Source of the DNA: a virus
Strand: one strand, 5' to 3'
DNA: 64,000 nt
IMG/VR virus record: IMGVR_UViG_3300027808_000009
Coordinates: 53,920-117,919 of that record
Shown here in pieces: positions 21,853 through 52,459 of the stretch (its first letter is position 1; every line of letters begins with the position of its first letter). The position numbers and the translations under genes are program-made. The notes beneath the pieces were generated by a model, which saw only the letters and a program-made list of their open reading frames with translations, was not told where the DNA came from and did not search any database.

Positions 21853-21912
21853 ACTTTTAATGTTTATTGAGTAAACCAAAAATTATTATATTTAATATAT
21901 ATTATACATTAT

Positions 21913-24609: not shown

Positions 24610-24618
24610 TTTTGTATT

Positions 24619-27198: not shown

Positions 27199-27263
27199 AC
27201 TTTCCAGGTTTAGTAAACTTATAAAATTTTAATATATTTACAGTATAGACAAACATTAACATT

Positions 27264-36200: not shown

Positions 36201-36804
36201 TACTAAAGACATAGATAAAAGAAGAAATAAAGCATACGGTAGCATACAGTTTAATTACTCAACTGATGAAGGTTACTATGGTGTATATACTGATGCACAA
36301 GGTAAAGAAGAACTTATTGAAAGTGGGAATGAAAAAGCAATTAAAGCAATACTTAAAGAGAAGTATGATGCTGAAGTAGCTGCATTACAACCTCAAACAG
36401 GACCAGTTACTAAAGCATCTGAGCTTAATCTACAAAAAGAGGATACAGTAGTTGTTAAAGAACCAATACCTGAATTTGCAGAAAAAGGTGATACATTAAC
36501 TGTTTTGAAATCTGATGAAAATTCAGTATCTTTTACAAATAAGGGTAAAGAAAAAACCTTATCTTTACAAGAGTTAAATAAACACACAACAACAATGGAT
36601 ATTCTTAAAACAGAGCAAGCAGAATCAACACCAGAAATACTTGATGCTATTGATAAACAGACTATTAATGAGACAGTTAATGCATTGACTGATTTTATTG
36701 GTGATAAAAAAGCAATTCAAGATGCTATTAAAAAAGCGGCTTCAAGTAATGTAACTGCTGAAAATCTTACAAATGATTTACTAGACAACTTAGAGTGTCA
36801 ATAA
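30187..36804 (+). CDS. giant ejection protein of the vRNAP cluster, with internal PD-(D/E)XK nuclease-like domain and C-terminal repeats
   Basis: 2205 aa; amphipathic/hydrophobic N-terminal helices; VAGEMDLLLIDKEGKLHIIDFKTG...QQYTY near 34920-35140; DTKAD...YDAEL repeats. Confidence 0.7.
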   Translation: MLTDDNQEFNSLDPLGPQFGKANQQEISSEALKPFEGAPIKPVKDYFPVIPQSGALTRGDYAVKDIITGQAPNQPPARSKQKVSAADFGRAAQQHFDMQLRTNQNKNNISKVAAYNAGPSGNSFYKRYAAYGQEKFDKIGFSPTRDNEALYNSHTTAWNDFSRMMTNSFVPLFSRGFVSGPKSLINALGGDFSGDTEDAKIYEEAAAIGQSTKGGFSGFFNNTAMNFAYTAGIMTEAIAEEVGMMAITAATGGATLPALFATTANAGKNILRGIKGLDKVGDGFKAVNKTLKSLNNIDETRKLFTTIKAGANSKVGKFLNPFENMTEAFGTIAKNENNLEGLARTASAINKTAGGLFRDVRNANMALSEARLEAGMNENAVYDKIYTEYYKKNGVPPDNDTQFLMLQKAKEAGMSTLIMNSALIFGSNKIVLPNILGPKGGPAGFLRSKVDDVMNLKDGKVVFEQFGKKAKEGVKQVGKGEFKYVEDSLKNTAKQILKQPGRALLKSSAGYFKGNIMEGVQENLQEVIAGANEKYYSDALSNRVLGTHINERGKASIMMDEFGKQFTSQGFETFASGFFMGMFAKPFNAALPTLFNGYNRVFNKDEYLKYKEIRKSYGEGLTNRLNTMYSDPKDFFNSKFFNYGVQNELATTIETADSKLKKDAMDEAFGNQVMTALETNTVNFFTEHLSSMKDMTPDEFEEAFRFEKGTGAKYQGRIDGIIDTAKNMEKSYKYANDRFPNPINLSPLKKGTEEYNEATIFSNAWEHGKKNYVLLNQSFNDTMGRMRDIMGTVKDNPSLKNMAQADIDLIFEPNKIGNEAAMLKTEIEGLKLSQDPASKQQAVEKQNKLDALSNFLDIHTKHNAYHNRADYAENIFEAYKKKTGETELSDDTKQYILDTAFGEKNDENTLKANSELEDVYKKYLKTVNGVDNSYVFDTDIDESFNKLLDHYLLDAESKKLVTYINLLHNPKSFVEHVEKTKQWMTNMYNNRKEYYTDMVNKQLAGIETNALLNQLADLNVFVDLDVLQDYMENDVIPKEFFDETTKQVIPKGTKKYNEIFNILALNKRLKAEDVEKPTLDDTLQEKVDTLEIQENKELDELEKVEVVKVIKKQVATTTKLTINDILNDIEEYQYVDAKYDGTEQIVTMYFGFAGLKADNNQGELLDADAIKDKFSEYTIYKKSLQADPEEVKAIKEKYNALRDQAAEAFNENKAKTKADIYSNFTPVEQLPKDLVTQLKTAFSQTEEAIKADEDDISGEELDDIFKVFVKNNSLADDIISEYNDKSKDAVEKEKLGEIDDFDFVSNNKRLNTANYSTEDIKVLRKQFEELRDNADTTLKKTAYQDVITKFNKLISTRDVQNFTPEVQEIIKTLKNELFAKQSGINKLGEEGYAVKGQILARVSNFIEKYKTEKYRYTGADIVKDAYDMTIGNTGFNERGIQFFINKLKLDLHIDSVKKNYGYTDETEALLKKHLKNLLVQDLNKVLFKNKEELLEDIQAFISENTYEASRDGGTYVDDELRKFFTKGGAPVFDEKKITREAYDNLFGPTSFLKPIKQRIDAGQLYTVATNLKVYDVDSNVAGEMDLLLIDKEGKLHIIDFKTGNETKWDGFVTQTKFSKNKLEAYTLQQYTYARLLKKMTGLDADINIFPIETTLDQNSKKVLTAGAPTNTKLNGPGKWYFSLDPNFTDAKAKIDKAIPIEAPVIKVATSINPVYKKQLVNLGYPIGIINDLTKEQAAELTKDNVPYKEFIKQTSGAKMSFGKAAAETVTPTDTKADIEKEIKETLRNITYANGTKPYDNLDIQNELEINQASRNIVNALSKDQPLTFEFLKANLGGIFTTTNNNVIKININKGTSNIELSEVGTVRTIIIDKNNNISYDFEDRGKQLNLKAARAISQAESKHQDKLKDIFKKYDAELTSLTQFTETTTTTDTKADLLNKYNKDVAKITNNYAKQIDSVGKARYRNNLEEARDNELLKLKEDYDAELAALEKTTENKSVVESVLDTKDIDKRRNKAYGSIQFNYSTDEGYYGVYTDAQGKEELIESGNEKAIKAILKEKYDAEVAALQPQTGPVTKASELNLQKEDTVVVKEPIPEFAEKGDTLTVLKSDENSVSFTNKGKEKTLSLQELNKHTTTMDILKTEQAESTPEILDAIDKQTINETVNALTDFIGDKKAIQDAIKKAASSNVTAENLTNDLLDNLECQ
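35498..36380 (+). repeat. intragenic dispersed repeats in the 2205-aa gene
   Basis: CTACAGATACTAAAGCTGA at 35498 and 35975; TATGATGCAGAACTA at 35926 and 36133; degenerate copies near 36198 and 36364. Confidence 0.75.
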
Positions 36805-36815
36805 ACTAATTAAAT

Positions 36816-39800
36816 ATGAATATTACTTGTGCTTTAACTAAAACGCAAATAGAAAAGCTATTTGCTAAAATTTATAGAGATTTATTTGATTCATTAAATG
36901 ATAATAAGTCTGTTGATGTAAAGTCTTATATGCAAACTTTATTCAATACAATTGAATCTAAATCAGATGCAGATAAAGCAGCAACATTTTTACAGAATGT
37001 ACCATCACTATTACATACTGCAATAGGTGATTATAGTTTAGCACGTCTTGAAATTGATGATAGTAGTATTAGACCATTAATTAATAAGTTTCTTAATCCA
37101 GAAACGGGTTTATTAGATGTACTACAATACTTTAGACCTAAAGATATTATCAAAGAGATACAGAATGATGTAAATATAAAGAACAATAGTATTAACAGTC
37201 CTAAGTTTACTGAGGATGCTGATGTACCAGTATCTCCAAGATATAAAGCATCAAGTGCATTTACAACTACAATGCAACAGTTTATTACTAGAGATCCAAA
37301 TAATAACTTAACTATTGAAGAAATAGATCCTAATAAGGTAAGAATATATAATACATTAGAAAAACTTAAAAAAGCATTTAATTCAAAAGATAATAGTGTA
37401 CTAAATCCAAAATACCAAGGTAGACTATTAAAACTTAAAGGTGTAAGATTAGATAGTGTTGCAGCTAGTTTAGATAAAACTACAGCTGCTTTATTAGTTA
37501 AAGCAAACTCAATTAAAAAAAAAGGTGGTGTAAACTTTCTTGAAGATGCAATTATATTAATGGTGACTGATGAGTTTGGTACTCCAATAAACTTTAGTAA
37601 AGAAGGTGATATTACATCTAAAGAAGAAGGTGGTAAACCTGTGTATCAATTTTTAAGAAATGTTACTGTTGATGAAGAAACAGGTGACTATACTATAAAA
37701 GATATTTATGGTAAAGAAGAAAGAATACAATCTGTAGAAGATCAGATTACTAATTATGGATCTAGTATATATGGTACAAAGTCTCTTAATGAATTCAAAC
37801 AAGTTTTAGAAGCAGAAGGTGAAAGCTATGATGATTTGTATAATGATTTAAAACAACAGCAACAAGCTGACTTTAAAGCTCTTCTAGATGTACATAAAGA
37901 AATACTAAAAGAAAAAGAAAAGCTATTTGATATAATGGATGTTAGTGCTGGTATACCACTTGATTTTACAGGTGGTAATATGCCTTTAAATGATTTTTTA
38001 AAATTAACCGATAACTTAAATACCAATTATAAATTTACTACACTAAGAACAGAAAGAGATGATATAAAAGCTGGTAATACTGTTATATCTATTAATGATT
38101 ATGAGATACCAGTTGATAGAAAAAATATGTCTGCGGACTTAATAAATAAAATTGCAGCTGCATTAGTTAGTAGTAAAATGGATGGTAGGGAAAAGTATGC
38201 CTTTTATGATCAGTTTTCTCATAATAATATAAACTTTGATGATAAAAAGTTATTTGTAGTTTATAAGCCTGAGTCTGGTTTAGAGGTAAGCTATAAAGAA
38301 GATACAAAAAATCCTAAAAGAGAAATAGTTGATTTAACTAATAAAGAAATAGCAAAAGCAATTATTATAAAAGCATTAGGCACTGAAAGAGGTACAGCTA
38401 GTAAACCATATTCTGCTAATATGAAAATTAATGCTGACTTATTAGAAAAGAGTACTCAGTTTTTTGATTATGATTTATTAAAGGATGAACCTGTTGAAGC
38501 ATCATATAGAGAATTTTTAAGTAAAGTAAATCCTACTGTTAAATTTAAAAATAATGAACCAGGTGTATATAACTCATACTTTGCATTTAGAGTTAATGAT
38601 AACTTAAGTAAAGAGTTAAAGAAGGCTAAAGAAAAAGTTCAAGAGAAAACATATACTACAGACTCTTATATAAGACAAGCTAAAGATGCTTTATTACTTA
38701 AACTTACAGAGAATAAAAACATATCTGGTACTGTAACAGGTAGTGTAACAAAAACTACATTTATAATCCAAGTTGATGGTAAGTCTGTTCAAGGTAGATT
38801 TGAAGAGGGTTTGTCAATTACATCAGTACCAACAAATTATACTGTAAGATTTTCTGTAGGTGAAGCAATAGTAGATGGTAAAAGAATAACAGATGTTATA
38901 TCTATCTATGCAGGAGATAAAAAAATTGGTCAAGTAAGTGAAACTGATTATAAAGCTGGAGAAAAACCAAGAACTTATGAAGATGCTAAAATAGCTGATG
39001 AAAAAGTAATTAATCCAATTGATGTACCACAACCATCTGATAAAAAAGGTAAGAGAAGTGGAATTAGTAAATTATGGGATAGGTCAAGTAAACTACCAAG
39101 TGATGTTACAAGAGAAGAAGTTGATGCTGCTCAAGAGTGGTGGGAGAATTCTCCGTTGTCTAAGTTTATTGAACTTGAGCACATGGCTAACATTGTTAAC
39201 TCTGATGTTTATGCAAGATTTATTATATCTGGTAAAAGATTAGAAGATACTAAAATACAATTAGATACTGCTACTGGTGGTTCTGCTGTAGATTTATACC
39301 ATGAAGCTTGGCATGCATTCTCTCAATTGTACTTAACTAAAGATCAAAAGACTAAGTTATATGCTGAGACAAGAAAAAGATTAAATAATAATGACCTTAC
39401 TCCACTTGAAGTAGAAGAAATAATAGCTGAGGATTTTAGAACTTATGCTAAAAATCCTAAACCAACAGGAGATGCACCAATAAGAAATACTTTATTCAGA
39501 AAAATCTGGAACTTTATCAAAGCACTTTTTGGTAAACGTAATACTAAAGATGAGTTATTTAAAGAATTATTCTTTGCAAGTAAAAATCCTAAGCTTTTAA
39601 ACAAGTATGCACCACTTGTTGATAACGCAATGTTTGACATACTTAATAGAGATAGAGGTATCTTAAATGTTGAAACAAAAGAACTTGAATTAAGCTTTCA
39701 AGACTCAATGACTGTATCAAGTCAAATTGATTCTGCTTTATCAGAATTAATTGATGAAATATATACAGATAGAGTAGAGAGAGAAAAGCAAGGAGAAGTA

Positions 39801-42800
39801 GGTAAAAACAATGTACCAATTAAAGCTACTAGAAATGGTACTATATCTTTATTAACAAATGATAAAGATAAAGCTATAGCTTATCAAGCTATATATGAAA
39901 GATTTGAAGACAATCTTACATATTTTCAAGATCAACTTGATACTGTAGATGAAGATGACTATAATAAAGTTACTCTTCTTACAGATAAAATAAGAATATT
40001 AAAAGCTGCAATAGATAACTGGGGTGACTCAAAAAGTGGTGTAGTTAAATTCCATATTGATAATAGTACATTTGATTTAATCAAGCAAAACTATATTGAA
40101 ATAGAAGCTGAAGATGAAGTAGATGAAGATGATGATAATACATCTCCTGAAACAGCAAAAGAGTCAGAACAATTTGCTAATAAAGAAGTAGGTGATAAAT
40201 CATTATTACAATTAGCTGAGAAAGAAACTCTTTATATCATAAAAAGTCTATTTAAAATAGCTGATGGTAAACAGGTAATGGGTAAACTTGGTTTTCCTGA
40301 GCTTGCTGATTTTAGTAAAACATGGAATATTGTTACTAAAGTGATTGGTGGTGAGAAAGATCCAGTTAAAATGTATGAAAAACTTGTTGCAGGTATTAAA
40401 AGTTTTCCTGAGTTAAAACAATTAATTGAAAATAAGATACCTGACCCAAGAGAAATACATAACATTGAGGAGTTTAATATTAAAGCTGCTTTCTGGCAAG
40501 ACTTTAAAAAGACTAAACTTAAATATCTTCAATTAACTGTAGATAACCCAGATGGTACTGAATATAAATCTGAGGTTACTGAAGCATCAATTGAGTTTAC
40601 AAATGTTATAAATAAGTTTAAAAGTGAATTTAAAGCATCACCAAAAAGTACTTATATCAATAAAGGTGATGATAACAAATCTATATTAAATCTAGACAAG
40701 GTAATTGCTGATTTTGATGATAAGAGTTTTGATAGTAGAAAATCAATCCAATTTGCAAGAGCAATTGGAATTAACCTACAAGATTTATCTGCATTAAAAA
40801 CAGAACTAGATAATAATAAAGATGATTATGGGATTCAATATTTATTTAATGTAACTAAATCTATACATAAAATAAGTAAAGATCCTAATGCAAGTACTGA
40901 ACATAAAAAGTTTATTAAAAAGTTTTTATCAGATCCAATTGGAGCTTTATATGGTGAAATACCAAAAGGTATCTATAAAGATGTTACATCTGAAAAGAAT
41001 ATAATTCAAAAATTAGCAAAACTACAGAGTGCATTTGGTACTAACTATTCTAGTTTCAGTGTATTAAACCCTGAAAAGAATCTTGTTAATGAGTTTATAG
41101 AAGACAATACTGTAAGTATGATTGTTGACGCAATCAATAATGTTTCTACTGGTAATGCTTTATGGACAAGTGATGAATACCAATACATGAGTTACCTTAA
41201 TCCAGAGATAAATGGATTTACATTACAGTCTCAAATATTAAAAAGTATATTTGAATACAGTAATAATACTTTAAATGAAAGAAAAGGTGATGCTAAGATT
41301 GAATTAGCAATGGTTGCAGGTTCACAAATTGTGGATGAAAAAGGTGCAAATACAACTTCTCTTGATGTACAAAGTAAATACATACAAGAATTAAATATGA
41401 TGCTAAAAGGTGGTATCGTAGAATTCATGAGGCATGCATCTAAGTCTTCATCATTTGGTATGAGATTAGCAAATAGTGTATCAGGTGGTCTTGGTAAAGC
41501 CGATCCTAATAGTAGATTGTATGTAGATATTGATATGTTTGGACCTAATGGTAATGCAGATCAGTATGCTGTTAATAATATATTCATAGGATACATACAG
41601 GCTGAGTTAACTAGAATACAAAAGTTTAAAGGCAATAAAGAATTATTCAAACAGTATAATGGTTACAATAGAAATGTTGGCACTGAAGAAAATCCTATTT
41701 ATGCTGGTGAACAATTTACAGCTTTTGATAATGTATTAAAAGACTTTACTACTACAATAAATGATAAAGAAACTACTACAGATTTAAAACAGTACTTGAT
41801 TGACAATGTAAAAGATGGTGATCTTAAGAATTATTTAAAGTCTAATCCAGAGATTAAAAAAGCTATTACTGAACAAGTAACAAAATATTTTAATGGTCAA
41901 ACAGATAAAAACTATAAACAATTCTCTGAGTCTCCATTCTATGACCCAGCTTTAATGAATAAGCTTAATGTGTTTACAACTTTGGAAAAAGAAGATAAAC
42001 ATAAGTTACTTGTTAAAGCATATACAATGAATGCTTGGATACATAACTTTGAAACAGCAAGTTTAGTATATGGTGATATAGTACAATATAATCATGCTAA
42101 ACAAGAGTTACATAAGAGAAACACGGGTTCTACATCTGGTGGAAGAGGTTTTATGGATGATATTTATACTCAACAGTTTTTAAATAGTGATCTTATTAAG
42201 AAATCATCTTATGCTTTCAAGCTTGCTAATAAAGCAGGATATGGAGCTGATTACAATACTTTTAATTATAGCAATAAATACAACACTGCAATACTTCAAG
42301 ATGTAAGTAGAGATTCAGTATACATTGATCATATTGAAAAAACATTAAGAGCTGATTATATTAAAAGAGGTGTAGCTAAAGATGTTATTGAGTATAGATT
42401 AAAGAAAGAGTTAAAAGCTTATACAAATATGGAAGAAGGTGATGGTCAAGGTTTTATAGCTATTGATGCATACCGTAATTTAAGATTAGCAGAAAAAAGT
42501 TGGAGTGCAGATCAAGAAAAACTATTCCAGGATATTATTAATGAAAAAGAAATCAAAGCAGAAGATGTAGTAAGATTCTTTCCTGTATATAAATTACAAC
42601 ACTTTGGCCATTTAGCTAACACAATGTTACCAGTTAATGCAATGCATAAGTTTGCATTGATGCCATTAATCCCATCAATGATTAAAGGTTCTGACTTAGA
42701 GTCTTTACATCATCAGATGATGAAAGGTAATATACAATATGCTACATTCCAAACTGGATCTAAAACAGGTGGTGTTACATCTCAATTAGATAAAAATGGA

Positions 42801-45800
42801 AAAGCTGTAGCAGATCAAATATATGATGATAAGGGTGTTGAAAAAACATTAAAATCTGATATCAAGTTTACGCCTAATACTATATACTTAGCTAACTTAA
42901 AGAATGTTACAGCAGTACCAACTAAGTATAAAGGTAAAACTGTATTCTCAACTCAGTTAAGAAAACTTATTCTTGAAGGTTTATACCAAGATGGAGAAAT
43001 AGTAAATAAAGATTATGCTCCATATATTAAAGCATATGAAACAGCTATCAAGGATTACACTGATCTTCTTAAAACAGAATTACTTGAGGAGATTGGCTAT
43101 GAGAAAGTAAACGGTAAATATGTAAGTGGTGATATTAGTAAGTTCATGGATGTAGTTCAAAGAGAGCTAGAAAGAAAGGATTTACCAGAGCACTTAATTA
43201 AGTATATACAGGTAGGTAAAGATAATAAGATTACAAAAGATTTGTCTTTACACTTATTAGCTGATGATATTGAAAAAATATTAGTATCTCTTGTAGAAAA
43301 AAGAATAGTAAAACAAAAAGTAAAAGGTGAAGCATTAGTACAGGTAGCAAGTTCTATGTCTAATGGATTGTGGGATTCAGGTTTTAAATTTGATAAAGCA
43401 AATACTAAAGACATAGAGAAATACTTAGGTAGTAATAACTTACCATTTTACTATCCAGGTGAAGATGGTAAAACAACTGCAATGAAAGTTGCTATTGCAT
43501 TACAAGGTGACTTTAAAAATCTCTTAAAGCTTAACCATATTGATAAAAAACCTATTGGTACAAGAGAAAGATTAAATGAGATGATCAAGAATGATGAGTG
43601 GTTGAATAAAGGTAATAACCGTAAAGCAATCACTATGACAGCTGTAAGGATTCCAGTACAAGGATTAAACTCTATGGAGTTTATGGAAGTGTATGAATTC
43701 TTAGATCCGTCTGCAGGTAACATTATTATTCCTCCATCAGAAATAGTTGCTAAGTCAGGAGCAGATTTTGACGTTGATAAGCTTACTACTTTCATGCCTA
43801 ATATAGATGCAGAAGGTCACTATATAGAAACAAGCATGGATGCTAAGAAATTAGAGACTCAGATTAATGCAGCTAAGAAGAGTGGTGATAAAGGTGAGAT
43901 GAAAAGATTAATCAAAATGCAAAAAGCTGCATTAGAAAATAGATTAATTGATTCAATCAGAGGTATTCTTGAGTTACCAGATAACTATGCTACATTAGTA
44001 AGACCAAATGACACTTACTTATTAAAAGATATAGCTGATGAACTTGTTAATTCATCTCCTGAATATAAAGAATTTAAAACTATTAGTCCAACAAATGTAT
44101 TAGAGGTAGGTTATAACTTACACAAACATGAGGCTAATATGATTGGTAAAGATGTATTAGGTATTATTGCATTAGAAAATGCATTACATCCGTTGCTTAC
44201 ATCATTAGGTGCAGCATTACCAAAAACATATAAACATCAAACATGGGATGATGAGAATAAAAGATATGTTGAAGTACCAGAGATAGATTATGAAATGAGA
44301 TTACTACTTAATCATAATAAAACAAATGATGGTAGAATATCTTTATCAAAAATTAACAGTTCTGATAACCAGGATAAGATTGCGGATTTAATATCTCACT
44401 TGATGAATGGATCTGTGGATGTTGAGAAAGATGCATGGATATTCTTTATTCAAGCTAATAAAGAAATTGTACCTGTATTACTTTCATTATTAAAAGCAGG
44501 TGTACCTAAAAGAGAAGCTATCTATTTTGTGTCTCAACCATTAGTAAAAGAGTATGCAAGACAACAAAGATTAATAGGTAGTGCTTTTGCTAATGTTACT
44601 GAAAATGGTGTGTTACCTAATGAAAATGAAAAATATATAGCATTACAAAATACATTAGCTGTATCAGGAATAAGTTTTAGATATCCATACTTATCTAGAG
44701 ATGCAAGTAACTTAAAAATGTTTGATGCTCTTAAAGCTACTAAAGATAAGGTAAAAGTTAAATTTAAAGATAATAGTTTTAAAGTTTTTGCACCAAAAGA
44801 ATTACTTAAAGCAATTGCTAATAATACTATTAAAAAGAATAACATATCTGATATATATAATGCAGTAGTAAAATATAAATTAGATGAAGAGGGTAATCCT
44901 GAGTTAGATCCGTATACTGGTGACAAAATTCAAATACCTTTATATAAAAAGGTTAGGGCATCTCATTTACTTTCAAATGACAACTGGTATTATGTTACAC
45001 AAGTTTTAACAAAAGATGTTAATAAATTTAGTGAAGCTGAATTAAAAACAAATATTGATAATAATGATTTTATCAGTGATTCTGCAATAAGAGCATTCTT
45101 ACACTTTATTGAATTTGAGAAAGAGATAAAAGGCTTATCTAATTTAAAAAGACAAGCTAATCCTGATACTAAGACTTCAAAAACAATACAGGAAGTAACA
45201 CAAAAGTCTTTATCACTTGAAGAAGCTGCAGATTCATCTAAAATAGAACCTGAATTAGCAAGAAAGCTCCAAGACGAATCTATATTAGGTACCTTCTTTG
45301 ATAAAATGATTATTACAGATATAGTATCACCATTATTTAATGTAACAAATAATAAAAATGTATCAGATCACATGGTTAAAACCATTACAAGAAAAGGTGG
45401 TCAAATAACTACTAAATTTGGTGAAGGTAAAGATGGTGTTGAAGCATACATAACTGCATACAAAAATGCAATAGTGAATTATATCTATCAGAATAAACTA
45501 AACAATATTATCACTACTGAGGAATCTTTCCCTGGAATACCAGAGTCATTTACAGATATAGACTCAAAAGAGTATATTGATAATTTTATGATAATGTTGA
45601 GTGAGCATTCTCACTTAAAAGAATTGTATCCTATACTTGAACAAATTACTGATATACCAGTAAAAAGTAAGAAAAAAACTGCTGTAGGTACAGAAACTAT
45701 ATATACTGCAACATTAACATTAAATAATAAATCTGCTGTTAAAGGTGCATTAGCCGAGGCTTATCACCAAAACTTAGTTGATCTTGCTGATGATAATATT

Positions 45801-48800
45801 ATTAAAGTAAATGATCCGGAGCAAAACAAAGAGATATCAGACATGTTTAAAATGTTACCTCTTATGTCTATTCTACAAAATGGAGTAGGTAGTACTAAAT
45901 ATGGTTTAAGTTATGTCTTACCAGATACTACATTCTTTGAAATAATAGAGCCTGCATCAAGAGAATTTTTAGCTTTAGATTCTGAGTCAAAAGATAAAAC
46001 ATTAGATATAATAGATAATTTATTATTTGAAAATGGTGTTGGTCAAAATAATTATATTTTATCAAGAGCTTCACGCAAAGCTTCTAACATAAAAGATACA
46101 GATGTTGATATAGAAGTTGAAAATGAAAAATATGTACCTAAAGGTGTAGGATTTGCTGGTGGTCAAGGTATGACTTTTGGTGCTAAACCGTCTACTAGTG
46201 TTAATAGTAATGATATATATTCTCAATTAGAAAATAAAAATGTAGTTATTTCTAACATTAAAACTAAAGATGGTAAATATGATAGGGATGCTAATATAAA
46301 AGAAGCAAAAGCTAATAATAGAGTTTATACTATGGAAATGGTTAGTGATATAAATAGTTTTAGTAATCCTTGGGCTCATTTTATTAGAACAGGTACTATA
46401 AAAACTAATACTACCAAAGAAGCAGTTATAAATTATATTGATTGGTTAACTACTGATAAATTTAAAGATGTTAAACCAAAAAGAAAAGCATTTATTCTAG
46501 ATGTTTTAAAATCAGGTAAATTAAAAGGAAGACAACTGCAATATTATGCAGAACTTGGAGAACCGTCTCATGCTATAGCTTTAGATTATTTAATTAATAA
46601 ATATGATTGGAATACTCAACAACAACAAGATGTTACAAGTAAAATTAATTTTGAAGAAAATCAAACTGGTGGTTATCCAGCTAGAACTAGAATTAATGCT
46701 TCTGCTGATGCAACAATACATATAGCAGATAACTTTGAAACTCCTGGTGAAAAGCTTACTGAAAAATCTGTAAAAGAACAAGGTAAGGTTTATAGAGCAA
46801 TAGAAACAAATGGTATACCTTTGAATGCAATTAGTAAAGATACTGTGTCATTAGCAATCAATAATATTGTAAAAATATTAAATACTGTAAATGCAAAAAG
46901 TTTAAATATTGCAGGGAATGGTATATATGATATGAAAGGCCGTACTCAAGAAGAAGTTGATAAATTTACTTATGACTTACTAAATGGTATAGTTAATTCA
47001 CCAAACCTTAAAAACAAAATCACATTAATAAGAAGTGGTGGTCAAACAGGATTTGATGAAGCAGGTGCAAAAGCGGGTATGAAATTAGGTATCCCTACTA
47101 CAGTATTAGCACCAAAAGATTGGGAGTTTAGAACTAATGAAGGTAATGTTAAAAATGAACAAGCTTTTAAAGCTAGATTTAATACTCAACAACAAGCTCC
47201 AGTTAATATAAAAACAATATCTGAACCATATGGTGTTGTATCAGTAGAAACTAATCCAACTGATTCTAAAACAAAAGAGTTTATTAGTTTACTACAACCA
47301 CAGATTAAAAAACAAGCTTATCAAGAAAATGTAACTGGTAATAAAATGTTTATGTATGGTTTAAGATGGACAAGAAAAGGTAAAGCTACTAAACCATTAA
47401 ATAATAAAAGCTATGCTAATAAGGGATTACCAATTACTGATGCATTAGCAACTGATGGTTATGTTTATGATACTGTAGATCAAAATGGAAATCAATTAGC
47501 ACCTCTTTCAAATTTACAACCAATTATAAATGAGATACAAAATACATTAGGTATTGATATGTCAAATTATGATGCTGTAATTGGTAATATTTATTTGCCG
47601 GGACAGAGAATTGCAACTCATAGAGATACTACTGAAAGTTTAAGTGCTAGAAATTATCCTGTAGTAGTTTATACTATTGGTGCAGGTAACGCTATAAATA
47701 TTTATGAAAATCAAAAAACACCTGGTTCTGCCTCATTTGCTTCTGACAAGAAAACATCAATACCTACTCAAAATGGTAGTATATACACCTTTGGTATGGG
47801 TGGTAAAGGAAGATTTGAATTAGGTCATGATACTCCACATGCGATTCAGAAAGGTGATACCTTAATACCTATTACAATGCCTGACGGTACAGTGATTAAA
47901 GACTATACTATTACACTTACATTTAGAAGAGCTGCTGACTTAGAACCAGGAATGCCAACAGCACCTGTTAAAATATCTACTCAATCATCTACTAGTGTTG
48001 AAGCTAAACAAGAAAGAATAAAAAAAGTAATTCCAAATACTATAGTTGATAAATTAAAGGGTTATACATTTAATTTACAAGAACTAAATAATGTTAAAAA
48101 GATATTTGAAAATACAAATCCATTTAATACAGATCCATTAGATTCAGAAACTATAAAAGATGGAAGAGTTTTTGAAGATCCAGGTCTTAGAGAGTATGGA
48201 ATGAGTGATCAACAATATAGTTGGGCAAAAAATAATGAACCTATATTGAGTAAACTTAATGAACTATTATACACTGATGAGTACTCAGCAATAAATTTTG
48301 AGGACTTAGTCTCTATGTTAATTGATGATAATACAAAGTTAGTAGATACTGCACAGACTAGTTTATTTGATGATGAATCTATTCAACAACAAGCTCCAGT
48401 AACTGAAGTTAAAGAAGAAAATAATACTGTTACATATAAACCTACAGGTAAAGAAAAACAAACTTATACTGTTTTAAATAATCAGATCTTTAATAAAAAT
48501 GGTGATGAAGTATTTAAAGAAGCTAGTGTAGACAGAAATAAAATCCTTGCTAATCTTGCAGTTAAAGAAGGTAGAGCAGTTATAGTAGAATATAAAACAT
48601 ACACAAATAAAGAAGGTGTTGATGTACCAGCTAAATACGTTGTTAATAATAAAGATGTAATTATATCTGTTAGAACAGGTGATATAATGAAATGGCCTGA
48701 GAATAATGGTGATAGAAAAGCTGTCATTGCTCTTGCAAAAGCTGCATTTGCTGAAGCTGCCTCTGAAGAACCAGAGATAACTCAAGACATGGAAGCATTC

Positions 48801-49166
48801 AATGCTGAAGTAACTAAACAAGGTAAGTTACCTACAGAGTTTATAGTTGATCAAAGAAAATGGGTATTAAATAATATGAAACTTTATGATCTAGTTGACA
48901 AATCTACAGGTATGATGTTTATGAAAAACATGAATATGTTTACAGGTGCTCAAGTAGAAGAAATTCCATCTAATAAACCAGTTAATAGAAAACAATTAAT
49001 TAACTTTGAGAAACAATTAGCAAGTGGTATTACAAGTTACAAATTAGATCAAATACTTGCAGTTAAAGGAATAAGTGTTGATGATATATATAATGATATT
49101 AGGAATATTACAACTCAGAGTCAATTGAATGATAAAATAAATAAAATACTTAAAGCAATATGTTAA
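36816..49166 (+). CDS. virion-packaged single-chain RNA polymerase (crAss-like vRNAP) with zincin and accessory domains
   Basis: 4116 aa; DLYHEAWH zincin motif (~39300), AVRIPVQ and catalytic GADFDVDK (43764-43781) as in phi14:2 gp66-type RNAPs; C-terminal DUF4326-like, SLOG-like and AlkB-like domains. Confidence 0.9.
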   Translation: MNITCALTKTQIEKLFAKIYRDLFDSLNDNKSVDVKSYMQTLFNTIESKSDADKAATFLQNVPSLLHTAIGDYSLARLEIDDSSIRPLINKFLNPETGLLDVLQYFRPKDIIKEIQNDVNIKNNSINSPKFTEDADVPVSPRYKASSAFTTTMQQFITRDPNNNLTIEEIDPNKVRIYNTLEKLKKAFNSKDNSVLNPKYQGRLLKLKGVRLDSVAASLDKTTAALLVKANSIKKKGGVNFLEDAIILMVTDEFGTPINFSKEGDITSKEEGGKPVYQFLRNVTVDEETGDYTIKDIYGKEERIQSVEDQITNYGSSIYGTKSLNEFKQVLEAEGESYDDLYNDLKQQQQADFKALLDVHKEILKEKEKLFDIMDVSAGIPLDFTGGNMPLNDFLKLTDNLNTNYKFTTLRTERDDIKAGNTVISINDYEIPVDRKNMSADLINKIAAALVSSKMDGREKYAFYDQFSHNNINFDDKKLFVVYKPESGLEVSYKEDTKNPKREIVDLTNKEIAKAIIIKALGTERGTASKPYSANMKINADLLEKSTQFFDYDLLKDEPVEASYREFLSKVNPTVKFKNNEPGVYNSYFAFRVNDNLSKELKKAKEKVQEKTYTTDSYIRQAKDALLLKLTENKNISGTVTGSVTKTTFIIQVDGKSVQGRFEEGLSITSVPTNYTVRFSVGEAIVDGKRITDVISIYAGDKKIGQVSETDYKAGEKPRTYEDAKIADEKVINPIDVPQPSDKKGKRSGISKLWDRSSKLPSDVTREEVDAAQEWWENSPLSKFIELEHMANIVNSDVYARFIISGKRLEDTKIQLDTATGGSAVDLYHEAWHAFSQLYLTKDQKTKLYAETRKRLNNNDLTPLEVEEIIAEDFRTYAKNPKPTGDAPIRNTLFRKIWNFIKALFGKRNTKDELFKELFFASKNPKLLNKYAPLVDNAMFDILNRDRGILNVETKELELSFQDSMTVSSQIDSALSELIDEIYTDRVEREKQGEVGKNNVPIKATRNGTISLLTNDKDKAIAYQAIYERFEDNLTYFQDQLDTVDEDDYNKVTLLTDKIRILKAAIDNWGDSKSGVVKFHIDNSTFDLIKQNYIEIEAEDEVDEDDDNTSPETAKESEQFANKEVGDKSLLQLAEKETLYIIKSLFKIADGKQVMGKLGFPELADFSKTWNIVTKVIGGEKDPVKMYEKLVAGIKSFPELKQLIENKIPDPREIHNIEEFNIKAAFWQDFKKTKLKYLQLTVDNPDGTEYKSEVTEASIEFTNVINKFKSEFKASPKSTYINKGDDNKSILNLDKVIADFDDKSFDSRKSIQFARAIGINLQDLSALKTELDNNKDDYGIQYLFNVTKSIHKISKDPNASTEHKKFIKKFLSDPIGALYGEIPKGIYKDVTSEKNIIQKLAKLQSAFGTNYSSFSVLNPEKNLVNEFIEDNTVSMIVDAINNVSTGNALWTSDEYQYMSYLNPEINGFTLQSQILKSIFEYSNNTLNERKGDAKIELAMVAGSQIVDEKGANTTSLDVQSKYIQELNMMLKGGIVEFMRHASKSSSFGMRLANSVSGGLGKADPNSRLYVDIDMFGPNGNADQYAVNNIFIGYIQAELTRIQKFKGNKELFKQYNGYNRNVGTEENPIYAGEQFTAFDNVLKDFTTTINDKETTTDLKQYLIDNVKDGDLKNYLKSNPEIKKAITEQVTKYFNGQTDKNYKQFSESPFYDPALMNKLNVFTTLEKEDKHKLLVKAYTMNAWIHNFETASLVYGDIVQYNHAKQELHKRNTGSTSGGRGFMDDIYTQQFLNSDLIKKSSYAFKLANKAGYGADYNTFNYSNKYNTAILQDVSRDSVYIDHIEKTLRADYIKRGVAKDVIEYRLKKELKAYTNMEEGDGQGFIAIDAYRNLRLAEKSWSADQEKLFQDIINEKEIKAEDVVRFFPVYKLQHFGHLANTMLPVNAMHKFALMPLIPSMIKGSDLESLHHQMMKGNIQYATFQTGSKTGGVTSQLDKNGKAVADQIYDDKGVEKTLKSDIKFTPNTIYLANLKNVTAVPTKYKGKTVFSTQLRKLILEGLYQDGEIVNKDYAPYIKAYETAIKDYTDLLKTELLEEIGYEKVNGKYVSGDISKFMDVVQRELERKDLPEHLIKYIQVGKDNKITKDLSLHLLADDIEKILVSLVEKRIVKQKVKGEALVQVASSMSNGLWDSGFKFDKANTKDIEKYLGSNNLPFYYPGEDGKTTAMKVAIALQGDFKNLLKLNHIDKKPIGTRERLNEMIKNDEWLNKGNNRKAITMTAVRIPVQGLNSMEFMEVYEFLDPSAGNIIIPPSEIVAKSGADFDVDKLTTFMPNIDAEGHYIETSMDAKKLETQINAAKKSGDKGEMKRLIKMQKAALENRLIDSIRGILELPDNYATLVRPNDTYLLKDIADELVNSSPEYKEFKTISPTNVLEVGYNLHKHEANMIGKDVLGIIALENALHPLLTSLGAALPKTYKHQTWDDENKRYVEVPEIDYEMRLLLNHNKTNDGRISLSKINSSDNQDKIADLISHLMNGSVDVEKDAWIFFIQANKEIVPVLLSLLKAGVPKREAIYFVSQPLVKEYARQQRLIGSAFANVTENGVLPNENEKYIALQNTLAVSGISFRYPYLSRDASNLKMFDALKATKDKVKVKFKDNSFKVFAPKELLKAIANNTIKKNNISDIYNAVVKYKLDEEGNPELDPYTGDKIQIPLYKKVRASHLLSNDNWYYVTQVLTKDVNKFSEAELKTNIDNNDFISDSAIRAFLHFIEFEKEIKGLSNLKRQANPDTKTSKTIQEVTQKSLSLEEAADSSKIEPELARKLQDESILGTFFDKMIITDIVSPLFNVTNNKNVSDHMVKTITRKGGQITTKFGEGKDGVEAYITAYKNAIVNYIYQNKLNNIITTEESFPGIPESFTDIDSKEYIDNFMIMLSEHSHLKELYPILEQITDIPVKSKKKTAVGTETIYTATLTLNNKSAVKGALAEAYHQNLVDLADDNIIKVNDPEQNKEISDMFKMLPLMSILQNGVGSTKYGLSYVLPDTTFFEIIEPASREFLALDSESKDKTLDIIDNLLFENGVGQNNYILSRASRKASNIKDTDVDIEVENEKYVPKGVGFAGGQGMTFGAKPSTSVNSNDIYSQLENKNVVISNIKTKDGKYDRDANIKEAKANNRVYTMEMVSDINSFSNPWAHFIRTGTIKTNTTKEAVINYIDWLTTDKFKDVKPKRKAFILDVLKSGKLKGRQLQYYAELGEPSHAIALDYLINKYDWNTQQQQDVTSKINFEENQTGGYPARTRINASADATIHIADNFETPGEKLTEKSVKEQGKVYRAIETNGIPLNAISKDTVSLAINNIVKILNTVNAKSLNIAGNGIYDMKGRTQEEVDKFTYDLLNGIVNSPNLKNKITLIRSGGQTGFDEAGAKAGMKLGIPTTVLAPKDWEFRTNEGNVKNEQAFKARFNTQQQAPVNIKTISEPYGVVSVETNPTDSKTKEFISLLQPQIKKQAYQENVTGNKMFMYGLRWTRKGKATKPLNNKSYANKGLPITDALATDGYVYDTVDQNGNQLAPLSNLQPIINEIQNTLGIDMSNYDAVIGNIYLPGQRIATHRDTTESLSARNYPVVVYTIGAGNAINIYENQKTPGSASFASDKKTSIPTQNGSIYTFGMGGKGRFELGHDTPHAIQKGDTLIPITMPDGTVIKDYTITLTFRRAADLEPGMPTAPVKISTQSSTSVEAKQERIKKVIPNTIVDKLKGYTFNLQELNNVKKIFENTNPFNTDPLDSETIKDGRVFEDPGLREYGMSDQQYSWAKNNEPILSKLNELLYTDEYSAINFEDLVSMLIDDNTKLVDTAQTSLFDDESIQQQAPVTEVKEENNTVTYKPTGKEKQTYTVLNNQIFNKNGDEVFKEASVDRNKILANLAVKEGRAVIVEYKTYTNKEGVDVPAKYVVNNKDVIISVRTGDIMKWPENNGDRKAVIALAKAAFAEAASEEPEITQDMEAFNAEVTKQGKLPTEFIVDQRKWVLNNMKLYDLVDKSTGMMFMKNMNMFTGAQVEEIPSNKPVNRKQLINFEKQLASGITSYKLDQILAVKGISVDDIYNDIRNITTQSQLNDKINKILKAIC
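46191..48400 (+). repeat. intragenic linker repeats in the vRNAP gene
   Basis: TCTACTAGTGTT at 46191 and 47988; AATACTCAACAACAA at 46611 and 47181; TCAACAACAAGCTCCAGT at 47186 and 48383. Confidence 0.75.
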
Positions 49167-52100
49167 CATGCCCAATTAAAACTAGTCAAGAGTATCAAGA
49201 TATTCTTAAAGAAGCTAATGGTAATGAAGAAAGAGCACTAGAATTATGGACAGAACGTGGATATAATTATGATGCAGATTTAAATGAGTATAAAGAAACT
49301 GAACCTGCAACAGGTATAGATCCAGAAGATACTAGAGATGATAAATTGTCAGCTCTTGTAGATAGAATGCGTCTATATGTAAGCAAGGAGATAAAAATGT
49401 TTGAGGGTAGAAAAGTTAAAGATCAAGAGGTTTTTAAAAAGAAAAAAGAAAAACTACTTGAGACTCTAAAAGCATTAGATGGTGTTGACTCAATTAATAT
49501 GTTTGTTAAAGATGCATATGAACAAGCACTACATGCTAAAAAAAGATTTGATTTGATATTAAGCAATGTTGGTTCTGAAGACGGTAAAGATATATTAAAT
49601 GAGTTAGCATCAATAAATGAATTTGCTAATGGATACTCTATATTAGATGAGATAAATAAACAAGATATATACAATTTTTTCTCTGCTGGAAAAGATGAAA
49701 GAGAACCTGGTACAAATATGACCGCACAGGATATGCTTTCAGATGCTGTTACAATAAGAGATAATATTAAGAAAAAATATGTACAAGTAGGTATTCCATT
49801 GATGGCTGAGTGGTTGTTACAATACCAAGCAGAAGGTATTGAAGATAAAGTATTACCACATCTTGAAACATTAAAGAAAAGATTAGATGAGCTTAAAGCT
49901 TCTACTAATTTATCTGAAAAGAAAAAAGATAAAGAAATTGCTAAACTAGAAGATGCAATTAATACATGGCAAAACTTTTCATTAGATAAAAAATCTCTTG
50001 TAGACTTATTAACTAAAGCTAGTCAAGATGAAGGTGTAATAGATTTCTTAATTAGTCCATTAATATCATCAAATGATCAATCACTTGGATTATTTGCAAG
50101 AGCTGTTAAAACTGAATTAGAAATTGCTAGACTTACTGATATTGATGTTAAAAGATTAGCAAGTGTAGAATTTGATAAATACAAAGATGCTCAATCAGCT
50201 AGTCAAAATAATCCTGCAAAATTTAATGAAGGTTTATATGAGTTTTTAGATTTTACTAAAGAGAAAAGTGATGGTACTGTTGAAGTAACACAAAGAGCAG
50301 CCTTTGTTCAAAAGCATGATATTAATAAGTTTAATGCAGCTAAGAAAAAAATGTATGCTTCTCTTGCTGGTTTATCTGATGCTGAACAAAAAAGAGTGAA
50401 AAATGATTGGTATAGCAATAATACTGCATCAAAAAGTCAAGAGGAAATAGATAAGATAAAAGCAGCTAAGTTAAAATTAAAAAATGGTAAACTAATAACT
50501 AAAGAAGAATATGAAGCTTGGTTAGACAGTGTAGAGGTAATTGGTAAAAATGGTAAAGTATATTATAAAGGTGAGTTAAGTGAGCCATCAATAGATTATA
50601 TAAACTCAAATTGGCAAGCTTTATATGATAAGGATGGTAAACCAAAAAATGCTAAAGGTGAATATCATAAATATTTAGTTGATATGTATCTTGAAGCTCA
50701 AGAGAGATTACCTGATGTACAAAAAAAAGGATATTTATTACCATCAATACTTAAAACTGATCTTGAAAGATTTCAGCAAAATGGTGGAAAAGATTTAGCA
50801 AAATATAAATTTAAAGAAGCAACATCTATTACAACAGATGATGTAGATTATGCATTAGGTGATTTATCTGAACAAGGTACTAAGTTCTTACCTGTAGATT
50901 ATACACGTAATATGGATGCTAAGGATGTAAGTTTAGACTTAGTAAGATCTGTATTAATATTTAACTCAATGACTAATAAATATGAAGCATTGAATAAGAT
51001 AGGTAATGAGATTAATATGTTTAAAACTATTATTGGTGAAAGAGAAATAACAGCAACTAATTCAAAAGGTAAACCAATCTTTGATGCTTTTGCTAAAAAA
51101 ATTGGTTTTACTGAGTTTTTAAGACAGAATGGTGAAAGTTATTCTAAAAGACACGTTGATGCATTTATAGATATGGTTGTATATCAAGAAATGCAAAGAG
51201 CTGAAGAAATACTTGGATTTTCAGGAGGTAAAATTACTAATACCTTAATGGGGTTTTCAGCTATTACAAGTATTGCAGCTGATGTATTAAAAGGTGTTGC
51301 TAATAACTTACAAGGTAATATTCAATTAATTATAGAAGCTAGTTCAGGTGAATTCTTTTCTGTCAAGAATCTTCATACTGGTAAAAAAGAATTTGCTAAA
51401 GCTGTACCAGATTTATTTGCTGATTTTGGAAAATCTTCACCTAAATCATGGGTTGGTAAGATGATTGAAGAATTTGATCCAATGCAAGGTGAGTATAAAG
51501 ATCAGTATGGTAAAAATGTATCACAATCAGCAGTAATTAAACTAATGAGAACAGACACATTATTCTTTAACCAGCATTGGGGTGAATATGAAATACAAGT
51601 ATCTTCAATGTTTGCATTGATGGCAGCTACAAAAACAATAGATAAAGATACTGGAGAAGAAATAACTGTACTTGATGCATATAAAAAATATGGTCCAGAA
51701 GGTATATATGATAATACAGAATTTACATCTAAGAAAAGATTTGATTTACAGAATAAACTACATGCATTAAGTAAAAGATTGCATGGTGTATATAATAACT
51801 TTGATAAAGGTACTGTCCAAAGATTTTCATTAGGTAGACTAGGGTTAATGTATAAAAAACATTTGGTACCAGGATATAAAAGAAGGTTTAAAAAAGCATC
51901 AATGGATCAAGAGTTAGGTAGTCCTGTTGAAGGTTTTTATAGAACCTTTAATTCTACTATGATAAAAGATATAAAACAAATGAAGTTTAATGTAGCTAAA
52001 AACTGGTCAACATATTCTGATTTTGAAAAAGCACAAATAACAAGAACATTAACTGAGTTAACTATTATTTTAACTTTAGCAGGATTATCAGCAATATTAG

Positions 52101-52459
52101 CTTATGCTTTTAGTGGAGATGATGATGATGATGAGGCAGTAAGAAAAAGTTATGCATATAATTTTTTAATGTATGAGTTAATTAGAATGCGTAGTGAAAC
52201 TGCAAGTTATATTTGGCCTGGTGATACAATGCGTATTATAAAGTCACCATTAGTTATTACAGGTACACTTGAAAGAACATTACGTCTGGCTAACCAAATA
52301 TTACCTTGGCATATTTCAGAAACATACAAGAGAGATACTGGTATATGGGAAAAAGGAGATAATAAAGCTTGGGCATATTTCTTAAAACTTATGGGTTTTT
52401 CAGGAAATAATATTGATCCAGCTGAAGCAGTTAAAGGATTTGAAAACGTAACAAGATAA
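49160..52459 (+). CDS. large ejection protein, third gene of the vRNAP cluster
   Basis: 1099 aa, helical; hydrophobic C-terminal segment ELTIILTLAGLSAILAYAF; overlaps the RNAP stop codon. Confidence 0.6.
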   Translation: MLTCPIKTSQEYQDILKEANGNEERALELWTERGYNYDADLNEYKETEPATGIDPEDTRDDKLSALVDRMRLYVSKEIKMFEGRKVKDQEVFKKKKEKLLETLKALDGVDSINMFVKDAYEQALHAKKRFDLILSNVGSEDGKDILNELASINEFANGYSILDEINKQDIYNFFSAGKDEREPGTNMTAQDMLSDAVTIRDNIKKKYVQVGIPLMAEWLLQYQAEGIEDKVLPHLETLKKRLDELKASTNLSEKKKDKEIAKLEDAINTWQNFSLDKKSLVDLLTKASQDEGVIDFLISPLISSNDQSLGLFARAVKTELEIARLTDIDVKRLASVEFDKYKDAQSASQNNPAKFNEGLYEFLDFTKEKSDGTVEVTQRAAFVQKHDINKFNAAKKKMYASLAGLSDAEQKRVKNDWYSNNTASKSQEEIDKIKAAKLKLKNGKLITKEEYEAWLDSVEVIGKNGKVYYKGELSEPSIDYINSNWQALYDKDGKPKNAKGEYHKYLVDMYLEAQERLPDVQKKGYLLPSILKTDLERFQQNGGKDLAKYKFKEATSITTDDVDYALGDLSEQGTKFLPVDYTRNMDAKDVSLDLVRSVLIFNSMTNKYEALNKIGNEINMFKTIIGEREITATNSKGKPIFDAFAKKIGFTEFLRQNGESYSKRHVDAFIDMVVYQEMQRAEEILGFSGGKITNTLMGFSAITSIAADVLKGVANNLQGNIQLIIEASSGEFFSVKNLHTGKKEFAKAVPDLFADFGKSSPKSWVGKMIEEFDPMQGEYKDQYGKNVSQSAVIKLMRTDTLFFNQHWGEYEIQVSSMFALMAATKTIDKDTGEEITVLDAYKKYGPEGIYDNTEFTSKKRFDLQNKLHALSKRLHGVYNNFDKGTVQRFSLGRLGLMYKKHLVPGYKRRFKKASMDQELGSPVEGFYRTFNSTMIKDIKQMKFNVAKNWSTYSDFEKAQITRTLTELTIILTLAGLSAILAYAFSGDDDDDEAVRKSYAYNFLMYELIRMRSETASYIWPGDTMRIIKSPLVITGTLERTLRLANQILPWHISETYKRDTGIWEKGDNKAWAYFLKLMGFSGNNIDPAEAVKGFENVTR

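Follow-up and report, generated by a model that had tools for sequence, protein, structure and literature searches.

A C-terminal array of exchangeable domain cassettes, joined at short conserved in-frame repeats, on a putative crAss-like virion RNA polymerase

The 64,000-nucleotide (nt) stretch of viral DNA analysed here, referred to as the window, covers positions 53,920 to 117,919 of the IMG/VR virus record IMGVR_UViG_3300027808_000009, which is 117,919 bp long and rated 100% complete. Public sequencing runs that contain this stretch are freshwater or lake metagenomes from 2016–2025. According to the list of open reading frames (ORFs) and their translations, the plus strand carries a giant ORF (36816..49166) of 4116 amino acids (aa), in which the core of a predicted crAss-like virion RNA polymerase is followed by a C-terminal array of cassettes. 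This tail (residues 3116–4116) consists, in this order, of a DUF4326-like module (M1), a cpYpsA SLOG module (M2), an AlkB-type module (M3), the modules M4 and M5a, and a conserved C-terminal anchor (M5b). Short in-frame joints lie at every module boundary; they encode the hydrophilic linkers T-Q-P/S-S-T-S-V and T-Q-Q-Q-A-P-V, and their DNA is conserved over 18–21 nt, synonymous positions included. Related phages carry other modules, or the same modules in another order, and the breakpoints between their arrays fall on the joints.

The polymerase core was recognised neither by PHROGs nor by a phmmer search of the whole protein against the PDB, which did not find gp66, so that a profile was needed. 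A profile built from 11 relatives around the DFDVD catalytic motif (residues 2317–2321; 43764..43778, plus strand), which reads DFDxD in nearly all of the 40 relatives described below, matched chain A of PDB entry 6VR4 with an E-value of 1.5e-19. This chain is the virion RNA polymerase gp66 of phi14:2, a crAss-like phage, and its catalytic motif DFDID (1361–1365) coincides with DFDVD in the alignment. In GenBank, tblastn finds its best matches in Crassvirales genomes and in phi14:2; a blastn search with the tail found nothing among GenBank phages. By its profile match, the 4116-aa ORF is thus a homologue of gp66. A preliminary description, made from the sequence of the window, had placed a domain array at the C-terminus of a virion RNA polymerase; array and core indeed form a single ORF, and the motifs that it quoted are all found where it had put them. 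In phi14:2, the virion contains gp66, which is translocated into the host together with the DNA (10.1101/2020.03.07.982082). The homology, and the place of the gene in a block of giant late genes, suggest that the 4116-aa protein is likewise packaged and ejected with the DNA.

The tail begins with GQGMTFGAK at residue 3116 (nt 46161). The first module, M1 (residues 3125–3266; 46188..46613, plus strand), was assigned through protein-atlas neighbours and fold matches. Its best atlas cluster, with 206 features in common, has a score of 0.91, and DUF4326 is the family of each of the ten best family-bearing matches. The AF2 model of M1 has a predicted local distance difference test score (pLDDT) of 88.9; when it was compared by Foldseek with BFVD, a library of viral structures, most of the top 33 matches were named DUF4326, all at a weak level (E 0.05–3, TM 0.3–0.5), and a Foldseek search of the PDB gave nothing at E ≤ 0.001. 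The Pfam DUF4326 model (PF14216; rhodanese-phosphatase clade) did not match M1 even at E ≤ 10. The label DUF4326-like given in the preliminary description is therefore retained loosely, on its atlas neighbours and weak fold matches but without a Pfam match. A search for homologues of near-equal length found two standalone relatives for M1 and none for M4.

The next two modules are more firmly assigned, since both exceed their Pfam cut-offs, in agreement with the SLOG and AlkB labels proposed earlier. M2 (residues 3267–3456; 46614..47183, plus strand) matches PF12694 with 41.8 bits (cut-off 26.2) and phrog_10774 at 3e-23, and carries SGGQTGFD, a GGxxGxD motif, near its C-terminus. With PDB 3imk it shares two segments in swapped order, a weak match (E 0.038). 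On these matches M2 is classified as a circularly permuted YpsA-type SLOG module. M3 (within residues 3457–3723; 47204..47978, plus strand) matches PF13532 with 32.7 bits (cut-off 31.2). A family profile of 15 homologues finds the plant 2-oxoglutarate (2OG)-Fe oxygenase 5xeg (8.6e-12) and AlkB, ALKBH2 and ALKBH3 structures from 3.7e-9 on, and the HxD...H iron ligands and the 2OG-binding Arg (H146, D148, H215 and R248 of the module) are invariant in the 15 homologues. M3 is accordingly classed, by sequence, as an AlkB-type 2OG/Fe(II) dioxygenase.

M4 (residues 3724–3855; 47985..48380, plus strand) belongs to no Pfam or PHROG family. It has only 16 relatives among 1.84 billion representative sequences, several of them within proteins of 2360–4923 aa; its AF2 model, computed with one extra sequence in the alignment, is predicted helical at low confidence. 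M5a (about residues 3869–3984; 48420..48767, plus strand) is a small alpha/beta module modelled at moderate AF2 confidence and has no Pfam match. The anchor M5b (about residues 3985–4116; 48768..49163, plus strand) comprises a beta part and a three-helix bundle, modelled with a pLDDT of about 90. Its last residue is an invariant Cys, and alignment A6 shows G280, Y301, N315 and C393 as invariant. Searches of M1, M4 and M5 against Pfam and PHROGs returned only noise, a wide VIA-align search with M4 and M5 as one query found only generic three-helix-bundle matches (Z ≤ 6.5) in the last 60 residues and gave no fold for M4 or M5a, and a Pfam scan of the window's tail found no ART-PolyVal, zincin MPTase or LPD domain. 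In every polymerase giant, that is, in the window (49161–49163) and in L001–L040 of the relatives, a helix is followed by a terminal Cys (...ILKAIC, ...ILDKLC, ...YKKSC). The upstream giants have Cys as their last or next-to-last residue as well (36793–36801 in the window; ...NLECQ, ...DLDC), and the terminal Cys may be a packaging or tethering signal shared by cargo proteins.

Five joints (J0–J4, all on the plus strand) delimit the modules. J0 (46185..46202), between the polymerase core and M1, reads K-P-S-T-S-V, with PSTSV at residue 3125 (46188). J1 (46611..46633) reads N-T-Q-Q-Q-Q-D-V, with TQQQQ at residue 3267 (46614), and is a degenerate copy of the QQQ joint. J2 (47184..47203), T-Q-Q-Q-A-P-V at residue 3457 (47184), is the first copy of an 18–20-nt repeat. 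J3 (47979..47999) encodes T-Q-S-S-T-S-V, with SSTSV at residue 3724 (47985), and is a copy of the widespread 21-nt joint ACTCAATCATCTACTAGTGTT. J4 (48381..48400), I-Q-Q-Q-A-P-V at residue 3856 (48381), is the second copy of the 18-nt repeat. Disorder is predicted for the joints, with pLDDT below 50 around J4. The linkers had been described in advance as exact DNA repeats of 12–18 bp, and both lengths exist: the 18-nt repeat TCAACAACAAGCTCCAGT lies at 47186 and 48383, and the 12-nt repeat TCTACTAGTGTT at 46191 and 47988. The latter by itself is near chance within 3.4 kb, where other exact 12–13-mers occur, and gains significance only together with the comparative data. When the two joint patterns are extended and ≤2–3 mismatches are allowed, they occur in the 64-kb window only in the tail, against chance expectations of 0.05 and 0.00, and in the whole 117.9-kb genome both joints are confined to the array.

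Relatives were collected with the end of the polymerase core as probe, so that tail content had no influence on the search, which yielded 40 IMG/VR loci, cited here by their labels (L001 and so on), which with the window make 41 giants. The 40 giants are 3197–4905 aa long and their tails 126–2033 aa. Pfam domains in these tails are cpYpsA, 2OG-FeII_Oxy_2, NADAR, ART-PolyVal, AAA_30/RecD-like and DprA-like, and many modules have no Pfam match. ART-PolyVal is above its cut-off in L029 (40.8 bits against 31.2) and weak in L022, L032 and L001, and an HExxH module is found in the tail of L003. L001, whose core end is 95% identical to that of the window, carries M1, a SLOG module of 55.6% identity, a different module of 300 aa with a weak signal of ADP-ribosyltransferase (ART) type, and M5. 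L002 (core end 88–90%) has the order M1-M4-M5, without 46611–47974. M3 is thus absent from both, M4 is 97.7% identical in L002 and absent from L001, and M5a is shared with these two loci only. L003 has two other modules and L004 none; L007 reads M1-AlkB-SLOG-NADAR, the order of SLOG and AlkB being opposite to that in the window, and L008 has about ten modules, NADAR included. The preliminary description had proposed a modular array shuffled by recombination, a view that a fixed set and order of domains in close relatives would have contradicted; close relatives differ in both. It had also pointed to a GxxMxFG motif ahead of the arrays of this protein and of the upstream giant. Both proteins do have the motif, but among the relatives it occurs only in L001 and L002 (L003 has ITFG), and being confined to the closest clade it is no general signal for the start of an array.

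Some further features of these tails were observed. In L004 the anchor is a separate gene of 242 aa (11532–12260) directly after a shortened polymerase gene, which indicates that the anchor can function as a polypeptide of its own. One common cassette family begins with (V)KEGV.ELF..NPEL... right after a joint (15 junctions in the main cluster), with copies in L001 (12302–13201), L008 (tail about 1107–1310) and L014 (tail about 163–290). The copy in L001 gives weak ART-PolyVal and diphtheria-toxin C-domain signals, and from these sequence signals the cassette may be a divergent ADP-ribosyltransferase.

Horizontal exchange is evident from the identity of the modules, which is uncoupled from that of the core. 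The M1 block (46183–46610) is 99.07% identical in nt to that of L007, the core end of which is 70.8% identical in nt and 55% in aa. Two further loci, L008 and L110, have an M1 of 96% identity; in L021 and L039 the identity of M1 is 78%, and the module lies several hundred residues deeper in the array. For M2 the values are 80% in L007 and 75% in L038, where the core is at 28%, and yet only 55.6% in L001, where the core is at 95%. The identity of M5b follows that of the core (62% in L003 and 30–36% in distant relatives). Since the anchor alone tracks the core, cassettes move between lineages, and core and anchor are inherited together.

The breakpoints of this exchange lie at the joints. L001 lacks 47204–48378, the segment between the two QQQAPV copies, and a single copy is left in its place. 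The same join is found in an independent lake contig of 2024, with one QQQAPV copy as against the two copies that flank M3 and M4 in the window. Homology blocks shared with L002, L007, L021, L038, L039 and L110 end at J1, and the place of J0 in L001, L002, L007 and L008 reads TQ(P/S)STSV with identical codons. Altogether, 27 of 28 ends of homology blocks within the tail lie ≤21 nt from a joint, where 13.6% would be expected (P ~1e-22, the ends being not fully independent). Indels and replacements thus break at the repeats, as the earlier link between exchange and linker repeats implied.

The joints are conserved as DNA far beyond the window. Unrelated junctions share either ACTCAA(C/T)CNTCTACTAGTGTT (T-Q-P/S-S-T-S-V) or ACTCAACAACAAGCTCCAGT (T-Q-Q-Q-A-P-V), and the sequences that flank them are unrelated. 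In the 41 giants, all 20 ST[SN]V peptides lie within a joint. All 19 STSV copies use the codons TCT-ACT-AGT-GTT, for which codon usage predicts 0.024 per copy, and the lone STNV copy has AAT for AGT, a single-base difference. L008 contains six identical 21-mers and a seventh that is one base off. In IMG/VR, the exact 18-mer of the STSV joint occurs in 70 contigs and its reversed control in 4; it is in frame within large ORFs in 67 of the 70, and about 20 contigs have two to six copies at domain-size spacing. Cargo ORFs in which no polymerase motif was seen also contain some of the copies. The STSV joint stands upstream of at least 30 module families and downstream of at least 42, and a Pfam match exists for only 9 of 30 representatives of the modules that follow it. 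Overall, a nucleotide-conserved in-frame joint is reused at more than 100 junctions, and more distant relatives have looser T-Q-P-S/T linkers. Logan contigs in which only the joint of about 30 nt is common and the flanks are unrelated, and a 'goes back 709' join in one contig, agree with exchange at the joints but may reflect assembly effects and are not counted as evidence.

Two other accounts of the joint were tried and rejected. One is a linker derived from hosts: 596 Gb of cellular genomes gave eight single matches, all outside a TQ context and chance-like. The other is a frameshift or termination signal: the STSV joint has an out-of-frame TAG but lacks a slippery site, and nothing comparable exists in the QQQ joint.

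With a probability of roughly 0.65, we consider the tail to be a cargo array of the polyvalent type, whose cassettes are exchanged at the joints and whose enzymes, once injected, act against host defence. Independent enzyme cassettes would sit between the conserved polymerase core and the conserved C-terminal anchor; they are internal rather than appended because the invariant anchor occupies the far end, and one may guess that this anchor serves packaging or docking. Through exchange among related phages, cassettes would be gained, lost, replaced by diverged alleles and re-ordered, with crossovers in the short in-frame joints that encode disordered linkers. All joints have a single codon phase and encode a disordered linker, so that a crossover from joint to joint preserves the frame and every fold. 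A crossover inside one array would delete, duplicate or re-order cassettes, and one between co-infecting phages would bring gain or allele replacement; the joints themselves would probably be the recombination substrate. The whole protein would be packaged and ejected with the DNA in the manner of gp66, and its enzymes would presumably act at entry, the DUF4326-like and SLOG modules (with NADAR and ART in relatives) on signals or marks derived from NAD or ADP-ribose, and the AlkB module on alkylated DNA or RNA. The repertoire of DUF4326-like, SLOG, NADAR and ART-PolyVal domains points to early counter-defence, and enzymes packaged in the virion would act before any phage gene is expressed, as a first layer of counter-defence.

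It is possible, though doubtful, that the joints matter as peptides and not as DNA, that is, as flexible linkers or as sites at which a phage protease sets the enzymes free, either in maturation or once they are ejected. Recombination could then occur anywhere, only linker junctions would survive, and identical codons would reflect the recent spread of cassettes with their linkers. The joints are indeed hydrophilic and predicted to be disordered, their Pro/Ser codon varies (CCG, CCA, CCT or TCA), a relative carries an HExxH module in its tail, and it has been proposed that crAss cargo polyproteins are processed and that polyvalent proteins undergo autoproteolysis (10.1101/2020.03.07.982082; PMC5512222). 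This account, however, leaves two observations unexplained: the position-specific use of three different Ser codons in 19 of 19 STSV copies, in giants whose cores are 25–95% identical, and the presence of one repeat copy in the short form of the array where the long form has two flanking copies. The peptide and recombination readings are also compatible with each other, and the pattern fits joints that drive recombination as well as joints that merely mark sites where exchange is tolerated. Far less room is left for the suspicion that the shuffling is an artefact, arising from assemblers that join different phages at short repeats or from plain vertical divergence and differential loss. In its favour, every relative is a metagenomic contig, and at the joints Logan contigs are interrupted or fork, one of them with a 'goes back 709' join that is possibly a mis-assembly. 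Against this, the architectures recur across samples, that of L001 in both an IMG/VR contig and a 2024 lake run, and there are several identical pairs from different samples. Vertical loss, moreover, can yield neither an M1 with 99% nt identity beside a core with 71%, nor a SLOG module with 55.6% identity beside a core with 95%. Since architectures recur in separate samples, assembly artefacts are unlikely, and the artefact account as a whole is highly improbable.

As to function, the modules might serve the polymerase or the DNA and RNA metabolism of the phage instead of counter-defence; a helicase could open the template, AlkB could repair the ejected genome or early transcripts, and a SLOG nucleotide sensor could gate transcription. 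AlkB domains of RNA-virus polyproteins are usually taken to serve genome repair. RecD-like helicase modules occur in several tails, including that of the gut crAss-like phage cr118_1, and fusions of SLOG to nucleic-acid enzymes have been interpreted as regulatory (PMC9503650). Housekeeping partners would, however, be expected to be conserved, and the modules are the most variable and horizontally mobile part of the protein; their NADAR, ART-PolyVal, SLOG and DUF4326-like repertoire is, furthermore, that of conflict-related polyvalent proteins and of ADP-ribose processing. A role of this kind in place of counter-defence is therefore quite unlikely.

Several points nevertheless weigh against a counter-defence array exchanged at its joints. 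The virion location and the defence role of this particular protein rest on inference. The family match of M1 is weak, and M4 and M5a are without family assignment. The QQQAPV joint is limited to five IMG/VR contigs and local to the clade of the window, and the breakpoint of the extra module of L001 lies 17–21 nt past the joint and not inside it. A length of 18–21 nt is short for RecA-type recombination, and the identity of the joints could reflect recent transfers of cassettes with linkers attached, followed by selection for linker junctions, in which case crossover driven by homology is not required. Finally, all relatives come from metagenomic contigs and assemblers can mis-join at repeats, a worry that is countered by identical junctions in contigs from separate samples.

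A bolder proposal makes the 21-nt joint ACTCAA(T/C)CNTCTACTAGTGTT, with its palindrome ACTAGT, a dedicated signal for recombination. It would be the site of attachment for a 'protein-domain integron', and a phage-encoded nuclease or recombinase that recognises it would drive the in-frame exchange of effector cassettes. This we hold to be unlikely. Searches of the phage genome for the RecT, ERF and YqaJ families found nothing, by which the lack of a recombinase is not shown. If the proposal were true, cassettes would be exchanged at such joints between co-infecting phages and between different cargo genes of environmental crAss-like phages, and the effector repertoire would be reshuffled far faster than by ordinary homologous recombination.

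The genes next to the giant ORF are of the same cargo block. The upstream giant (30187–36804, 2205 aa) has the same three-part layout as the polymerase giant: its core, which gives a weak PD-(D/E)XK signal, and its last 130 or so residues are conserved in relatives, and the part at about 35450–36400 is variable. In L051 and L071 a TQPSTSV joint precedes a module that starts with SVDTKADI, comparable to the TDTKAD starts in the upstream giant. Downstream, a gene of 1099 aa (49160–52459) overlaps the end of the giant, stop codon included, by 7 nt; this cargo-block ORF is conserved in size (1090–1108 aa) and position in L001–L004 and has no PHROG match.

Taken together, these results suggest that crAss-like phages hang pre-made counter-defence enzymes on the polymerase that they inject, and that an abundant freshwater branch of them trades these enzymes, cassette by cassette and in frame, at a fixed joint. 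With such exchange, the stretch between two joints can be treated as one unit, and the families that follow the STSV joint, at least 30 and mostly without a Pfam match, are candidate anti-defence activities. The joints would also be a natural example of a recombination-ready linker design for multi-domain proteins. As to annotation, the polymerase gene is named after one fused cassette in several records of gut crAss-like phages. RefSeq does so for the giant polymerase genes of L122 and L123 (NC_055896.1), and its labels on polymerase genes include 'exonuclease V' (cr118_1), 'DNA helicase' and 'DprA-like DNA recombination-mediator protein'. In the human-gut phage cr118_1 (L122, NC_055872.1), the 4946-aa polymerase gp14 (16381–31221) has the RecD-like helicase at its C-terminal end. 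In cr113_1, the final 890 codons of the polymerase gene include 12 in-frame TAGs, as TAG recoding would allow.

The closest known system for the carrier is gp66 of phi14:2 (PDB 6VR4; Drobysheva et al.). The two proteins share a homologous catalytic region with DFDxD, and both are encoded by a giant gene in a cargo and transcription block with other giant cargo genes on both sides. They differ in that gp66 has about 2200 residues, as against 4116 here, and no enzyme array has been reported for it. For gut crAss-like phages the literature has only 'large, multidomain proteins' with variable boundaries (PMC7886860).

For the array, the nearest relatives are the polyvalent proteins, the virion-embedded multi-effector proteins of phages and conjugative elements (Iyer, Burroughs, Anand, de Souza and Aravind, 2017; PMC5512222). 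Like these, the tail strings unrelated effector and enzyme domains (2–15 in PMC5512222) on a large phage protein whose gene lies among virion genes and whose delivery along with the DNA is predicted: a single polypeptide combines the polymerase core with DUF4326-like, SLOG and AlkB modules and at least two unknown ones, and relatives have up to about ten modules. The polyvalent concept itself was seeded by the virion RNA polymerase of N4, fused to ART and metallopeptidase domains, and recombinational variability was raised as a possibility for one polyvalent system (PMC5512222). The kinship to polyvalent proteins that had been suspected at the outset is strengthened by ART-PolyVal itself, which occurs in the relatives' tails. 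The carrier here is, in contrast, a two-barrel crAss-type polymerase and not the T7-like enzyme of N4; the array is internal, between core and conserved C-terminal anchor; and the modules meet at a nucleotide-conserved in-frame joint, which is not mentioned in PMC5512222 (where 'linker', 'low-complexity' and 'shuffl' are absent). What is already known, then, are polyvalent proteins, including the effector fusions of the N4 polymerase, and crAss polymerases as multidomain proteins with variable boundaries (PMC7886860); in the open-access papers searched, no enzyme-cassette array on a crAss-type polymerase, anchored internal layout or joint of this kind was found.

Polymorphic toxins offer a parallel in working mode rather than membership. 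In these, too, a short conserved motif marks the site at which variable domains are exchanged by recombination, as in CdiA-CT after VENN and in Rhs tips after PxxxxDPxGL (Zhang et al., 2012; PMC3482391). Unlike them, the array has neither immunity genes nor silent orphan cassettes, the joints being confined to it in the 117.9-kb genome; several cassettes stand in series in place of a single tip, and the cargo is predicted to consist of counter-defence enzymes instead of toxins. Exon shuffling is comparable in that in-frame exchange from joint to joint leaves the domains whole. As regards content, DUF4326, SLOG and NADAR form a recurrent viral combination for ADP-ribose processing (Iyer et al., 2022; PMC9503650), and the adjoining DUF4326-like and YpsA-clade SLOG modules of the window, to which NADAR is added in L007 and L008, resemble the viral DUF4326-SLOG-NADAR/Macro fusions. 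Those are typically standalone or small fusions (PMC9503650), whereas here the same domains are cassettes in a putative virion polymerase, in company with AlkB, helicase, ART and unknown modules.

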